Below are positions 20,755 through 46,631 of a stretch of 64,000 nucleotides of DNA, in pieces. Source of the DNA: Thalassobellus citreus (GTDB lineage: Bacteria > Bacteroidota > Bacteroidia > Flavobacteriales > Flavobacteriaceae). The DNA is taken from assembly GCF_044385915.1 (NCBI RefSeq), contig NZ_JBISCC010000113.1:12152-76151 (forward strand), written 5' to 3'. Under the pieces are notes generated by a model. It was not told the origin of the DNA, searched no databases, and saw only the letters and a program-made list of their open reading frames with translations. Each line of letters opens with the position of its first letter. Position 1 is the stretch's first letter. The translations under genes and the position numbers were made by a program.

Positions 20755-20814
20755 GTCGGGCTTTCACAAGTCGCGCTCTGCGAGGCGCTCCAACAATTGC
20801 TCAATCCCTAACGC
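20755..20814 (+). repeat. 60-nt conserved structured element, copy A. Inverted copy at 46572..46631.
   Basis: 55 of 60 nt identical. Internal hairpin GC[G/T]CTC-TGC-GAGG[C/A]GC with compensatory G:C to T:A change between copies. Confidence 0.6.
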
Positions 20815-20886
20815 AAACCCATCTGCGAAGTATAGTTCTAATACAAATATTCGTGTATTCGTGGCTAATTTATTTATATTTACAAC

Positions 20887-21639
20887 ATGCAAATTCCAAA
20901 AGGAAAAAAAATATATTTCGCTTCAGATAACCATTTAGGAGCTCCTACACAAGAAGCTTCTCGTCCGCGCGAAAAAAAATTCGTAGCATGGTTAGACGAA
21001 ATAAAGCATGATGCAGCTGCCATTTTCCTTCTAGGCGATTTATTCGATTTTTGGTTCGAATACAAAACAGTTGTTCCAAAAGGATTCACCAGAACCTTAG
21101 GTAAACTTGCCGAAATATCAGATTCTGGAATTCCAATTCACTATTTTGTTGGCAACCACGATTTATGGATGAACGGCTATTTTGAAGAAGAACTAAACAT
21201 TCCTGTTTACCACAAACCCAAAGAGTTTACTTTTAACGATAAAACATTTTTCATAGGTCATGGCGACGGTTTAGGTCCTGGCGACAAAGGCTATAAACGC
21301 ATGAAAAAGGTATTTATTAGTCCGTTTTTTAAATGGCTTTTTAAATGGGGACACCCAGATATTGGTATGCGTATCGCACAATATTTATCAGTTAAAAACA
21401 AATTGATTTCTGGTGACGATGATGCTAAATTTCTTGGTGAAGAAAACGAATGGTTAGCCATTTACTGTAAACGAAAACTTGAAGAAAAACATCGTGATTA
21501 TTTTGTGTTTGGTCACCGTCATTTACCACTAGAAATGAATCTAAACGACAATTCAAAATACATCAATCTAGGCGATTGGATTCAATATTACACCTATGGC
21601 ACTTTTGATGGTGAACATTTTGAGTTAAAAAAACATTAA
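20887..21639 (+). CDS. lpxH: UDP-2,3-diacylglucosamine diphosphatase (LpxH-like calcineurin phosphoesterase)
   Basis: YFASDNHLG, LLGDLFDFW and GNHD metallophosphatase motifs. Confidence 0.65.
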   Translation: MQIPKGKKIYFASDNHLGAPTQEASRPREKKFVAWLDEIKHDAAAIFLLGDLFDFWFEYKTVVPKGFTRTLGKLAEISDSGIPIHYFVGNHDLWMNGYFEEELNIPVYHKPKEFTFNDKTFFIGHGDGLGPGDKGYKRMKKVFISPFFKWLFKWGHPDIGMRIAQYLSVKNKLISGDDDAKFLGEENEWLAIYCKRKLEEKHRDYFVFGHRHLPLEMNLNDNSKYINLGDWIQYYTYGTFDGEHFELKKH

Positions 21640-22907
21640 GCCTCTTCATTCTCATGCGCCTCAATATCCTTAGTTAAGTCTAAGTTTCTAAGCGTTTTGT
21701 TCTTGGCACCAATAGTTAAAACCGTAATTAAAGTCATAGTGCCTCCAAAAACTACAGCAGCTACAGGTCCTAATAATTTAGCAGCTAAACCACTTTCAAA
21801 AGCACCTAATTCGTTAGAAGATCCAACAAACATAGAATTAACAGAAGATACGCGTCCACGCATGTCATCTGGTGTTTTTATTTGTAAAATAGTTTGACGA
21901 ATTATCATAGAAATACCATCAACAGCACCACTTATAAATAACATCAATACACTTACCCAAAACACTTTAGATAAGCCAAAACCAATCATACTTAAACCAA
22001 ATATAAAAATAGAAATAAGCAGTTTTTTACCTGTATTTTTACTTATAGGAATGTAAGTAGTCACAAACATAGTAATAATACTTCCCAAAGATATTGATGC
22101 ATTTAAAATACCTAAACCTTGACTTCCTACTTCTAAAATATCTTGAGCAAAAATAACTAGAATAGCAACCGTTCCTCCAAATAAAACAGCAATCATATCC
22201 AACGTTAAAGCACCCAATATAGCCTTGTTTTGAAACACAAACCGAATACCAACCTTTAAACTCTCTTTTACCGATTCGCCAATTTTTTTATTTAAAATAG
22301 GCTTCTTTTTAATTAGAAAAACCAAAGCAAACGATATCAATACTAAAATAAAAACCAGACATAAAGTATAATCTGCACCAATCCAATGAATAAAAAACCC
22401 TCCAAAAAGAGCGCCTAATACAGCTGCTGTTTTCCAAATGCTTGTACTCCATGTAGCGGCATTTGGATATATTTTTTTAGGAACAATTAAGGCTATTAAA
22501 GAAAAAATAGTGGGTCCGAAAAAGGCACGTAAAAAACCACCAAAAAAAACAAGCGCATAAACAGAATATAAAATAGCATTTGTTGACCAATTATCAACAA
22601 CGCCATCAGTGGTTAATAAAAACAAGCCTAAACTAATAAAAGAAAAGGCGGCTATACAAATTGCTAATAGATTTCGTTTTTCTTTTTGATCTACAATATG
22701 ACCTGCAAATGGCGCCATAAAAAATGCTGGAATAAATTCACAGGCTCCTATTAAAGCCAAATTCCATGGGTTTTTTGTTAAACTATAAACCTCCCATTCA
22801 ATAACAATAAATTGCATAGACCATCCAAAAACTAAAAATAATCGCAACAATAAAAAAATGTTGAATTCTTTAATTCGTAATGCTGCGTAGGGATCTGTTT
22901 TTGCCAT
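21636..22907 (-). CDS. MFS transporter
   Basis: 423 aa with 12 TM helices and MFS-like loop motifs. Confidence 0.65.
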   Translation of the reverse strand: MAKTDPYAALRIKEFNIFLLLRLFLVFGWSMQFIVIEWEVYSLTKNPWNLALIGACEFIPAFFMAPFAGHIVDQKEKRNLLAICIAAFSFISLGLFLLTTDGVVDNWSTNAILYSVYALVFFGGFLRAFFGPTIFSLIALIVPKKIYPNAATWSTSIWKTAAVLGALFGGFFIHWIGADYTLCLVFILVLISFALVFLIKKKPILNKKIGESVKESLKVGIRFVFQNKAILGALTLDMIAVLFGGTVAILVIFAQDILEVGSQGLGILNASISLGSIITMFVTTYIPISKNTGKKLLISIFIFGLSMIGFGLSKVFWVSVLMLFISGAVDGISMIIRQTILQIKTPDDMRGRVSSVNSMFVGSSNELGAFESGLAAKLLGPVAAVVFGGTMTLITVLTIGAKNKTLRNLDLTKDIEAHENEEA

Positions 22908-22910
22908 AAT

Positions 22911-44937: not shown

Positions 44938-45387
44938 TTATAATACTTCCTTTACTTTAAACTCATTCTCTCTAAAAGCAATAATGTCTTCAACCACTTT
45001 ACCCATCAACAATTTTCCAATGGGTGTATTAGATGAAATTGCGTAGAACACCTCATTATTTACTTTCAATTCGCCAGTACTTATAGCAATAAAATAATTT
45101 GCTTGTGTTGTATAAACCACACTTCCCAAACCAATGCATTTAGAAGTTTTAGAAATATCTACTTTAGAAAGCATTTCTTTTGTTTTCTGAATTTCGGCAA
45201 GTTGATTACCTGCTTTTTCGCGTTCTAATTGCAACATGGCGCGCCCAGTTTCATGCTTATCGCCTGCGCTACTTTTTGTTTCTGATGTGAGTGATTTTTG
45301 AATATTGTTTATCGTGTTTTGAATGATTTGAAATCGGTTATCGATAAATTCTAAACACTGATTGTATAGTTCTTCTTTTATACTCAT
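44938..45387 (-). CDS. GreA/GreB-like domain protein
   Basis: C-terminal ISSNTPIGKLLMGKVVEDII resembles the GreA FKBP-like domain motif. Confidence 0.45.
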   Translation of the reverse strand: MSIKEELYNQCLEFIDNRFQIIQNTINNIQKSLTSETKSSAGDKHETGRAMLQLEREKAGNQLAEIQKTKEMLSKVDISKTSKCIGLGSVVYTTQANYFIAISTGELKVNNEVFYAISSNTPIGKLLMGKVVEDIIAFRENEFKVKEVL

Positions 45388-45414
45388 ACTTTATCTACTA
45401 AAATAGATTGCTAT

Positions 45415-46533
45415 CTACGCAGGAATTAGTTCTGCTAATTCTTTCCCTATTAAACTCCCTATTGCAACTCCCATACCACCAAGTCGTACACCACAAAACA
45501 CATGATTAGACACCTGTTTTACAATGGCTTTTTTTTGATTTCCAACACCCATGATGCCACTCCATCGATAATCTATTTCAAAAGGAGTTTCTGGCAATAT
45601 AGTTGTTTTTAAAAGTGTTTCTAACTTATTTTGAATTAATGCTGTTTGATTTAACTCAGTTGTTTCCTCTCCTTTAAAATCTAAGTTTCTGCCGCCACCT
45701 AAAAGGATTCTATCGTCAATATTTCTAAAGTAATAATAGCCTTTATCTAAGTGAAATGTGCCTTTTACATGTAAATTTTTAATAGGTTTAGTTATAAGAA
45801 CCTGTGATCGTGCTGGTTTTACATTTTCTAGTAAAAGCTGCGATGCAAATCCGTTGGTTGCAATACATAACTTTGAGGTTGAAAACTCAAACTGATTGGT
45901 TTTTATCTTTACAGAATTAGCAGCTTCTGAAAAATGTTCAACTTCAATATTATTTAAAATTTTAATGCCTTTTGTTTGCACTTTTAGAAGCAATGCTTCC
46001 ATCATTTTTCCTGTATCTAATTGTCCTTCAAACTGATTAAAAATATACTGATCTTTTATATTTTTAAACTGAAACCTGTTGGCTTTTAAACTAAAAACGG
46101 CGTCCTTAAAAATAGGATTTAGCAACTTGTTTATGCTTTCTATTTGAGATAAACAGGTATCAAAAAGGGTAGTATCTAAATTATTAAACAATTCATAACC
46201 GCCATTATTTTGATAATTAATGGCTTCATCTCCTAAAGTTTCTCTTAATAGTTTTAAACCATTTACGCGTTTTTCTACGAGCTGAATGACTTCTTCTTCG
46301 GAATGTGATTTTAAATCGTCTAATATTTCGCTTAGACTTCCAAAACATGCAAATCCCGCATTCTTTGTACTTGCGCCTTGCGGCAATGTTCCTTTTTCTA
46401 ATATGATGATTTTAGCTTTGGGAAAACGCGTTTTAAGTTGTAATGCACAATTAAGGCCTACAATACCACTGCCAACTATAGTATAATCTACATTTGTTAG
46501 CCAACTTTTTATTTCCCAATAAGAAAGATTCAT
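45415..46533 (-). CDS. FAD-dependent oxidoreductase (DAO / glycine oxidase-like)
   Basis: YTIVGSGIVGLNCA dinucleotide-binding motif. Confidence 0.7.
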   Translation of the reverse strand: MNLSYWEIKSWLTNVDYTIVGSGIVGLNCALQLKTRFPKAKIIILEKGTLPQGASTKNAGFACFGSLSEILDDLKSHSEEEVIQLVEKRVNGLKLLRETLGDEAINYQNNGGYELFNNLDTTLFDTCLSQIESINKLLNPIFKDAVFSLKANRFQFKNIKDQYIFNQFEGQLDTGKMMEALLLKVQTKGIKILNNIEVEHFSEAANSVKIKTNQFEFSTSKLCIATNGFASQLLLENVKPARSQVLITKPIKNLHVKGTFHLDKGYYYFRNIDDRILLGGGRNLDFKGEETTELNQTALIQNKLETLLKTTILPETPFEIDYRWSGIMGVGNQKKAIVKQVSNHVFCGVRLGGMGVAIGSLIGKELAELIPA

Positions 46534-46571
46534 CTAGCTAATTTACAGTTTTATTTTAGATGAAGTAGCTC

Positions 46572-46631
46572 GTGTTAAGGATTGAGCAATTGTTGGAGCT
46601 CCTCGCAGAGAGCGACTTGTGAAAGCCTGAC
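46572..46631 (-). repeat. 60-nt conserved structured element, copy B. Inverted relative to copy A.
   Basis: See 20755..20814. Preceded (on the minus strand) by the accC terminator hairpin at 46670..46689. Confidence 0.6.

Follow-up and report, generated by a model that had tools for sequence, protein, structure and literature searches.

What is the short intergenic sequence that occurs twice, in inverted orientation, on contig NZ_JBISCC010000113.1 of Thalassobellus citreus, and does the base-pair change between its copies point to a structure that is maintained? We addressed this question in a 64,000-nucleotide (nt) stretch of the contig (hereafter the window), in which copy A lies on the plus strand and copy B on the minus strand. 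The first-pass annotation had described two 60-nt copies that are identical at 55 of 60 positions. Our read-out of the window (A, 20755..20814; B, 46631..46572) confirms this, as does a search with a degenerate 54-mer, which has two matches in the window and none in 100 shuffles used as a control. We are confident that the element is a repeat of the Flavo-1 family (Rfam RF01705) with a conserved fold. With much less assurance, though we favour this reading, it would be a dispersed structured repeat at gene ends, akin to repetitive extragenic palindromes (REP) and to MITEs (miniature transposable elements with inverted repeats) and co-transcribed into 3′ untranslated regions.

Extent and predicted fold of the element

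The 60-mer is the larger part of the real unit but is too short, the full length being 75 nt in A and 87 nt in B. One strand of this unit, as RNA or as single-stranded DNA, can be folded from its sequence into a three-way junction formed by a closing helix, P0 (5-6 bp), a variable hairpin, Pa, and a long arm, P1-P4. The arm consists of P1 (3 bp), P2 (TT:AA) and P3 (CA:TG), followed by the loop AGTC/TCCAACAAT, which is asymmetric, and by a tip of 6 bp in which one G is bulged; the arm of B is the same as that of A except for a T:A pair in P4. The parts are as follows.

20740..20814, plus strand: copy A, full element, 75 nt (window read-out, 100.8 bits with the covariance model R1, alignment)
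20735..20739, plus strand: 5′ flank of A, TTAGG, the counterpart of a conserved TTTGG; it holds the queD stop codon TAG (20736-20738), and the same junction is found in relatives
20740-45, plus strand: P0 5′ strand of A, GCGTTA (closing helix)
20746-55, plus strand: Pa hairpin of A, CCC-TAAA-GGG (CCCTAAAGGG)
20756-57, plus strand: linker TC of A
20758-60, 20762-63 and 20767-68, plus strand: P1 5′ strand GGG, P2 TT and P3 CA of A
20769-72, 20773-78 and 20782-88, plus strand: loop AGTC and P4 GCGCTC of A, then loop TGC and GAG-G-CGC with the bulged G at 20785
20789-97, 20798-99 and 20803-04, plus strand: loop TCCAACAAT, P3′ TG and P2′ AA of A
20806-08 and 20809-14, plus strand: P1′ CCC and P0′ TAACGC of A
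46572..46658, minus strand: copy B, full element, 87 nt (R1, 84.4 bits)
46658-53 and 46652-31, minus strand: P0 5′ strand GTGTTC and Pa of B, CTTTTGCC-GAAAAA-GGCAAAAG, an 8-bp hairpin
46630-29 and 46628-26, minus strand: linker TC and P1 5′ strand AGG of B
46580-78 and 46577-72, minus strand: P1′ CCT and P0′ TAACAC of B

The two copies differ at positions 4, 21, 32, 53 and 59 of the 60-mer. Positions 21 and 32 form a P4 pair beside the bulged G, G:C in A and T:A in B, so that the compensated hairpin pair proposed by the first-pass annotation is genuine. Another compensated pair, in P1, joins positions 4 and 53 (GGG/CCC in A, AGG/CCT in B). The change at position 59 (TAACGC in A, TAACAC in B) is compensated just outside the 60-mer by C20741 versus T46657 in P0 (GCGTTA versus GTGTTC). 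All of the differences thus fall within helices, and each is compensated.

A scan of 185,579 species genomes with a pattern that covers only the arm flanks gave 48 matches in 46 loci. Of these, 47 come from about 13 Flavobacteriaceae genera (Algibacter, Wocania, Flaviramulus, Lacinutrix, Oceanihabitans, Jejuia, Ichthyenterobacterium, Bizionia, Seonamhaeicola, Thalassobellus, Ca. Marifrigoribacter, Polaribacter and Antarcticibacterium); the remaining match, in Acinetobacter (L018), is structureless and due to chance. The structured matches are all intergenic and all from Flavobacteriaceae, with one to four exact-variant matches per genome and most copies elsewhere solitary, and a scan of viral contigs with the same variant pattern gave none. 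The region is 96% identical to T. sediminis, and the core of the element is about 95% conserved, compared to 77-80% identity in the coding flanks. Some orthologous copies were missed by the exact pattern because of P3 wobbles such as that in a copy of locus L177 (1675-1762), where C-G/T-G is a G.T wobble on the gene-sense strand. The genome Ca. Marifrigoribacter sp. Uisw_064 (L019, 1381-6279; L039, 6978-7047) carries tandem paralogues of a secreted protein of about 600 amino acids with one variant element per spacer; since every spacer of the array has one, the element was duplicated together with the genes.

The covariance model R1 was built from 16 variant copies only and then run on the window and the loci, where it recovers 52 sites. 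The pairing statistics refer to the R1 alignment of 48 distinct copies from other genomes, with 21 pairs, 500 shuffles and controls in which the partner strand was slid; this alignment was made by fitting the copies to the model, and a small number of P0 strands next to a long Pa are misplaced in it, but a separate, independent parse of the copies gives the same picture of compensated pairing. Paired cells amount to 94.3% (84.8% in the shuffles), double-sided changes occur in 13 of the 21 pairs, and there are 81 compensatory cells. None of the 500 shuffles attains any of these three values, and slid partners pair in only 24-48%. In P1-P4, 97-100% of cells are paired, with double changes in 8 of 13 pairs. 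The tip reads GCGCTC/GAGGCGC, GCTCTC/GAGGAGC, GCTCTT/AAGGAGC or GCAATC/GATGTGC, or is a longer stem (for example TCCCGAT..ATCGGGA), and the bulged G is never lost. P1 is found as GGG/CCC, AGG/CCT, GCG/CGC, GTG/CAC or GAG/CTC, and P0 has at least six compensated forms (GTGTTA/TAACAC, GCGTAA/TTACGC, GGGTT/AACCC, GCGTG/CACGC, GCGCT/AGCGC and GCATT/AATGC). At the level of sequence comparison, this demonstrates that the predicted fold is kept by compensatory changes.

The earlier proposal of a structural constraint on an RNA, a cruciform or a protein site is thereby strongly borne out. The first-pass annotation had suggested searching related genomes and building a covariance model, and had named as outcomes that would speak against it a restriction to two copies, absence from relatives and loss of the pairing; the searches returned about 50 copies in about 13 genera, and none of the three holds. 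That the copies arose by chance, or by a recent local duplication, and have no function, for which only the small number of copies in the window could be cited, is refuted by the lack of matches in shuffles and by these copies with their compensatory changes, and we give it practically no credence.

Relation to the Flavo-1 family

Besides two tRNA genes (16449-16522, minus strand, 65.2 bits; 41357-41439, plus strand, 57.7 bits), the only match to an Rfam non-coding RNA in the window is to RF01705. It was placed at 43275..43351 on the minus strand, 3 kb from B, and marks a third family member.

43252..43342, plus strand: canonical Flavo-1 copy (RF01705, 52.5 bits; R1, 24.7 bits, E 0.003, full length)

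Read on the plus strand, this copy is GCGTAC-[hairpin]-TC-GCG-CTTTCCGC...CATCAATC-GC-TTACGC, in which another arm is set on the same P0/Pa/P1 scaffold. It lies directly 3′ of one open reading frame (ORF; 42144-43244, plus strand) and 5′ of another (43484-44893, plus strand); as both are on the plus strand, the strand annotated by Rfam is antisense to both.

The RF01705 model itself does not match A or B, either at its gathering threshold of 42 bits or at E≤10 on 401-nt slices, and when the window and both copies were scanned against Rfam (E≤10), no family of any kind was assigned to either copy. Variant copies in L047, L119 and L043 are missed likewise, as are copies with class-b and class-c arms at the gathering score, while canonical copies score 52-64 bits. 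In the reverse direction, R1 matches canonical copies over their full length even though it was built from variants only. The scaffold common to variant and canonical copies is GG-GCGTTA-CC..GG-TC-GGGCTTT...CAATCCC-TAACGC-R.

Further likenesses connect the variant with Flavo-1. Both are restricted to the same phylum and habitat, being intergenic elements of Bacteroidota and mostly of Flavobacteriia. The sequences at the base of the arm on the Rfam strand, GGGAUUGA...GAAAGCCCGACC (also as GCGUUAGGGAUUGA ... GAAAGCCCGACC), are common to both, and the reverse complement of A reads GCGTTAGGGATTGAGC...TGTGAAAGCCCGACC. In both, a long hairpin with imperfect pairing has G/A-rich internal loops and a distal stem that varies, and covariation backs it; the variant occupies the same genomic sites as accepted copies in relatives. 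The published alignment of 2010 already holds arms of the same class on the same scaffold base sequences ('GUUUGAGCUC...GCGAGUG' and ..GAAGCAUUUGUUUGAGCUC...GCGAGUGCAGAAAGCCUGACC), and 25 of its rows contain AAAGCCCGACC (PMC2864571). On the other hand, the middle of the arm is replaced in the variant, in which P3 is C-A:U-G instead of G-C:G-C and an asymmetric 4x9 loop (AGUC/UCCAACAAU) leads to a short GC-rich tip with the bulged G. Moreover, the consensus of Weinberg et al. is a single hairpin without P0 or Pa (PMC2864571), whereas here P0 and Pa make a three-way junction. As RF01705 misses A and B, we treat the element as a Flavo-1 variant that fails the model test and not as a new family.

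To follow the scaffold irrespective of its arm, metagenomes were scanned with the pattern GGTCGGGCTTT-N33-63-CAATCCCTAACGC, which gave at least 120 loci in marine, soil and human-gut contigs. A looser regular expression had been dropped as too noisy (216 matches compared to 80 in shuffles) and was replaced by the covariance model and exact scaffold patterns. Among the metagenome matches listed, the 5′ strand of P0 is GCGTT[A/C/T] in 115 of 123 copies, and 110 distinct copies divide into 39 with canonical-like arms, 32 of a second class (CAAGTCCTCGC..GCTGTGGGCTTT), 16 of the variant's class (xxTCGC-hairpin-GAGCTyMAACA), two of them with the exact arm, and 23 others. The scaffold thus holds at least four arm classes among these matches, and by comparison of the copies the long arm is demonstrably a swappable module on a common predicted junction. 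In the human gut, copies with the class-b arm (L139, L143 and other loci) have serine-recombinase and ArdC-like genes within 3 kb, at 97-100% identity across samples, and are probably part of a conjugative element.

A sizeable part of the Flavo-1 family, with at least three further arm classes on one scaffold, is therefore invisible to the Rfam model, and the real unit appears to be a three-way junction with a closing helix and not a lone hairpin. With a better model, many conserved intergenic blocks of Flavobacteriaceae and gut Bacteroidales that now carry no annotation would be marked. To our knowledge, Flavo-1 is among the most numerous 'sRNA' families in Rfam, and no function has been assigned to it for 16 years; our literature search found no functional study of Flavo-1, nor any REP or MITE elements of Flavobacteriaceae that match the sequence.

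Genomic sites, orientation and exchange of units

The genes around the two copies are the following.

20286..20738, plus strand: queD, 6-carboxytetrahydropterin synthase (PF01242; 100% identical to Thalassobellus citreus), ending inside the 5′ flank of A
20887..21639, plus strand: lpxH-like UDP-2,3-diacylglucosamine diphosphatase, downstream of A
46700..48055, minus strand: accC, biotin carboxylase, upstream of B
46666..46693, minus strand: intrinsic terminator of accC (stem-loop and T-run), directly 5′ of B and outside the element; kept in L031, L055, L176 and L177
45415..46533, minus strand: FAD-dependent oxidoreductase of the DAO family, downstream of B

A terminator-like hairpin had been reported before each copy. 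This holds for B, but at A the hairpin in question (CCCTAAAGGG, 20746-20755) is the Pa of the element itself and has no T-run, and no terminator-like site was found in 20600-20950. The distance to the next start codon, given as about 70-110 nt, is 72 nt for A and only 38 nt for B. Upstream of lpxH, a conserved block ATATTCGTGTATTCGTGGCTAATTTATTTATATTTAC (window 20842-20878, also in L050 and L054) is probably a promoter or leader of that gene; its part TATATTTAC is kept even in a 26-nt spacer of Bizionia.

Is the element attached to the gene that follows it or to the gene that precedes it? The first-pass annotation had tied both copies to the next gene on their strand. They do precede a gene, but the tie to the 3′ end of the upstream gene is at least as strong. 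In the variant subfamily the strands of the nearest upstream and downstream ORFs are (+,+) in 29 cases, (-,+) in 9, (+,-) in 7, (+,?) in 3 and (-,-) in 1, so that the variant is co-directional with both neighbours in about 13 independent locus types and opposed to them in one. These neighbours are unrelated housekeeping genes (queD|lpxH, accC|DAO, trpE|trpG within the trp operon, uvrA, lolE-like|cysK-like, hflX, gpsA, mgtE and ECF sigma|S41 peptidase). In the scaffold sample, among the matches listed, 20 copies are (+,+), 13 (-,-), 14 convergent and 2 divergent; 14 of 34 copies start within 13 nt of the upstream stop codon, and in co-directional spacers the copy lies nearer to the stop codon of the preceding gene. 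Copies often begin at the stop codon itself or just after the T-run of a terminator. The excess of convergent spacers and the proximity to stop codons indicate that the Flavo-1 family dwells at the 3′ ends of genes and is, overall, only weakly biased in strand, in agreement with the transcriptome report on F. psychrophilum (PMC9723704). The GC skew has the same sign over 1-56 kb of the window; within this one domain A and B differ in their orientation to replication and both follow local transcription, and an orientation coupled to replication was rejected.

These contexts bear on whether the element could be a 5′ cis-regulatory leader or riboswitch of the downstream gene. Such a role would fit the B-type locus, where the distance from core to DAO start codon stays at 46-47 nt while the upstream gene varies, and the 9 of 49 copies that sit in divergent spacers upstream of a co-directional gene. 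However, the downstream genes are unrelated (lpxH, DAO, trpG, cysK-like, S41 peptidase, a LytTR regulator and others), which excludes a riboswitch; seven copies lie between convergent genes, so that they could regulate nothing downstream; at the uvrA, lolE-like and gpsA loci a change of downstream gene leaves the element beside the same upstream gene; and Weinberg et al. scored Flavo-1 as not cis-regulatory (PMC2864571). We consider a leader highly improbable.

The unpaired flank is conserved as well. Among 99 metagenome copies of the matches listed, the five positions 5′ of P0 carry T.78, T.87, T.76, G.93 and G.92, with TTAGG or TATGG in some copies (for example window 20735-20739 and 46659-46663), while the base after P0′ is A or G and is followed by no conservation. 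TTTGG could be a target site, a part of the element or, read on the Rfam strand as a single-stranded CCAAA after the closing stem, a CCA-like tail. As part of a promoter for the element it was rejected, since it mismatches the Bacteroidota -7 box TAnnTTTG with T and not A at the key position. In scans for sigma-70 promoters and terminators around the copies, no such site was attached to the element, and no copy has a T-run after P0′, as the GC-rich hairpin and U-run of an intrinsic terminator would demand. A tRNA-like element was set aside because no tRNA model matches and the CCA-like tail alone is suggestive. Inspection also eliminated an integron attC site, since the end boxes are mismatched and their order is wrong, as well as ribozymes such as hammerhead and twister, for which there are neither core motifs nor an Rfam match.

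Which strand, then, would carry a function? The minimum free energy is lower on the Rfam strand in 39 of 43 variant copies and in 74 of 101 superfamily arms among the matches listed, a difference that is confounded by purine/pyrimidine composition, and the internal loops of that strand are purine-rich with the potential for tandem G.A pairs. Energies and loop composition favour the Rfam strand, whereas the gene context of the variant favours the other; wobbles in the superfamily arms among the matches listed (146 G.U and 122 A.C) give no strand signal. A stand-alone small RNA (sRNA), as Rfam types the family, would be made from the Rfam strand, opposite to the orientation of the first-pass annotation, and would act in trans or bind a protein. 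The energies, the G/A-rich loops, the CCAAA after the closing stem, the strong covariation and the conservation of unpaired loops across genera are in line with this explanation. It is opposed by the absence of a conserved promoter or terminator on either side in the scans near copies and in the flank profiles, the mismatch to the TAnnTTTG box, copies that overlap the stop codons of unrelated genes or occur inside an operon, and many Flavo-1 matches in F. psychrophilum that are untranscribed (PMC9723704). In addition, a transcript from the Rfam strand of the variant would run antisense to the genes on both sides in 13 of 14 co-directional locus types, which is unexpected for an independent gene, and whole-unit replacement and empty sites, described below, are unusual for an sRNA gene. 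We therefore regard an independent sRNA as improbable.

Comparison of orthologous sites shows how the units change at the DNA level. Directly after the queD stop codon, the junction in relatives is ..GATAAyrTTTAG|GGCGTTACC... The variant arm follows in T. citreus, T. sediminis, T. suaedae and a metagenome-assembled genome (MAG); a canonical arm above the Rfam gathering score in L048 (55.3 bits) and Flaviramulus aquimarinus (L049, 59.2 bits); yet other arms in Gaetbulibacter and Algibacter marinivivus; and no element at all in Bizionia (26-nt spacer), Hanstruepera and Flavivirga. Within Thalassobellus, Pa is shortened and a tip pair changes from T:A to G:C. At the accC|DAO site of a TARA MAG (L176, 1619-1763), whose DAO is 90% identical, the copy begins at the same nucleotide as B, after ..GGAGTTTTTTATGG past the accC terminator, but differs in P0 (GCGTTA/TAACGC) and in Pa and bears a canonical arm with a long insert in the arm loop. 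As P0, Pa and arm all differ from the same nucleotide onwards, the whole unit was replaced. Upstream of queD, a 2OG-Fe(II) oxygenase gene (ORF 19529-20188, minus strand; window 19548-20229) is also present in L047, L048, L051 and L052 but absent from T. sediminis (L023), L049, L050, L053 and L054, an indel of about 680 nt between genomes that are 96% identical.

Could the element nevertheless be a vertically inherited, non-mobile cis-acting RNA that is selected by the host, for example a 3′-end stabiliser, an RNase site or a site of factor-dependent termination, with arms homogenised by gene conversion? Syntenic retention across genera, a core far better conserved than the coding flanks, the strong sense-orientation bias of the variant subfamily, the compensated structure and, at A, the fact that no further terminator separates queD from the lpxH promoter region would agree with it. 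However, P0, Pa and arm all differ between close relatives at one site, leaving no homology to drive conversion; the same arm occurs at more than 20 unrelated loci; the sites are empty in three genera, apparently without gene loss; and the superfamily takes either orientation in co-directional spacers (20 versus 13 among the matches listed) and has no U-tract. This explanation seems unlikely to us.

In Flaviramulus aquimarinus (L049, 2001-3731; L055, 1481-3753) the arrangement is queD-[element]-DAO and, about 20 kb apart, accC-[decayed remnant]-lpxH, the remnant being GTGTTACC..CTCAATCTTTAA. These junctions are the reciprocal ends of an inversion of the A-B segment, with breakpoints in both element-bearing spacers, and queD|lpxH is the commoner adjacency. 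The repeats may have mediated this inversion. That the inverted pair of A and B is a DNA recombination site, a programmed switch that flips the intervening 26 kb, would be consistent with the same reciprocal junctions but is very unlikely in our view: no recombinase gene lies beside either copy, most copies elsewhere are solitary, the inverted segment carries ordinary housekeeping genes, and the ends in Flaviramulus are self-consistent (next to queD the end is A-type, next to accC it is a decayed B-type remnant), which suggests a rare historical rearrangement near the repeats and not a switch.

The missed arm classes, the junction unit, the coming, going and exchange of whole units at fixed gene-end sites and the coincidence of repeats with rearrangement breakpoints shift our working hypothesis from a small RNA gene towards a REP/MITE-like structured repeat. 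According to this hypothesis, the element would be propagated or replaced as a unit at the DNA level beside T-rich ..TTTGG sites at gene ends and would be transcribed passively, together with the gene or operon upstream. Once folded, this RNA might form a 3′-end or intercistronic structure that protects or punctuates the mRNA, and dispersed inverted copies might serve as substrates for rearrangement. A specific role of the RNA as a 3′ structure is a tentative proposal by analogy that we hold rather doubtful.

Several observations weigh against the repeat hypothesis. With one to four exact-variant copies per genome and three family members in 64 kb, a REP-like abundance is unproven. No transposase, target-site duplication or recurrent neighbour gene was found near the copies, and there is no clean pair of filled and empty sites that would set the boundaries of the element. 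The folding energy of single copies is no better than that of shuffles on either strand (z -0.5 to -1.9), so that the evidence for structure depends on comparison. Purine-rich loops and lower energy on the strand opposite to the neighbour genes argue against a function of the sense-strand RNA, and wobbles in the R1 alignment are symmetric (13 G.U versus 11 A.C). In F. psychrophilum, Flavo-1 matches are found on the sense or the antisense strand of transcripts, and many of them show no transcription (PMC9723704). Finally, the unpaired loop sequences are highly conserved across genera, which suggests a specific partner and not a generic hairpin. A search for a partner enzyme by clustering of neighbour proteins gave only same-species duplicates, with no recurrent family among 438 ORFs within 3 kb of 123 copies of the matches listed, a search by which a single locus per genome encoding a REP-associated tyrosine transposase (RAYT) is easily missed.

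We also hypothesize, more speculatively, that the Flavo-1 superfamily is not an sRNA but a Bacteroidota-wide, modular mobile element defined by its structure, although we hold this to be rather less probable than not by a wide measure. An enzyme would recognise the conserved three-way-junction scaffold in the form of a folded single strand, and the element would be inserted in one orientation beside ..TTTGG at gene ends, with interchangeable arm modules. If true, this would be a new kind of REP-like replicator in which the choice of strand follows transcription and not replication.

Comparison with known repeat systems

The element differs from MITEs (Correia/CREE, RUP and ERIC) and from palindromes derived from IS200/IS605 in that its termini have only 5-6 bp, no direct repeat flanks it, no parent insertion sequence or transposase was identified, and inside the unit the structure is conserved far better, and compensated more often, than is typical of MITEs. 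It resembles them as a small non-coding unit with short inverted termini (P0), which is present or absent at orthologous sites, as seen after queD, and can supply the stop codon of the upstream ORF. Like the targets of IS200/IS605, a conserved oligonucleotide (TTTGG) abuts one end, and there is no terminal duplication.

The REP elements of Enterobacteria and Pseudomonas, with their composite forms (bacterial interspersed mosaic elements, BIMEs, and the REPINs associated with RAYT), number tens to hundreds per genome, compared to the three family members per 64 kb and the one to four exact-variant copies per genome that the pattern scan gives here. Unlike them, the element has no GTAG-type 5′ tetranucleotide, its flank consensus being TTTGG; its predicted fold is branched with three helices and not a simple hairpin or doublet; and no RAYT or other Y1 transposase gene was found near its copies. 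Both the element and REP are short, structured, imperfect palindromes that are dispersed in intergenic DNA and concentrated at gene 3′ ends, in convergent spacers and within operons, and both would be co-transcribed, long retained at orthologous loci, compensated in their stems and possible substrates for rearrangement.

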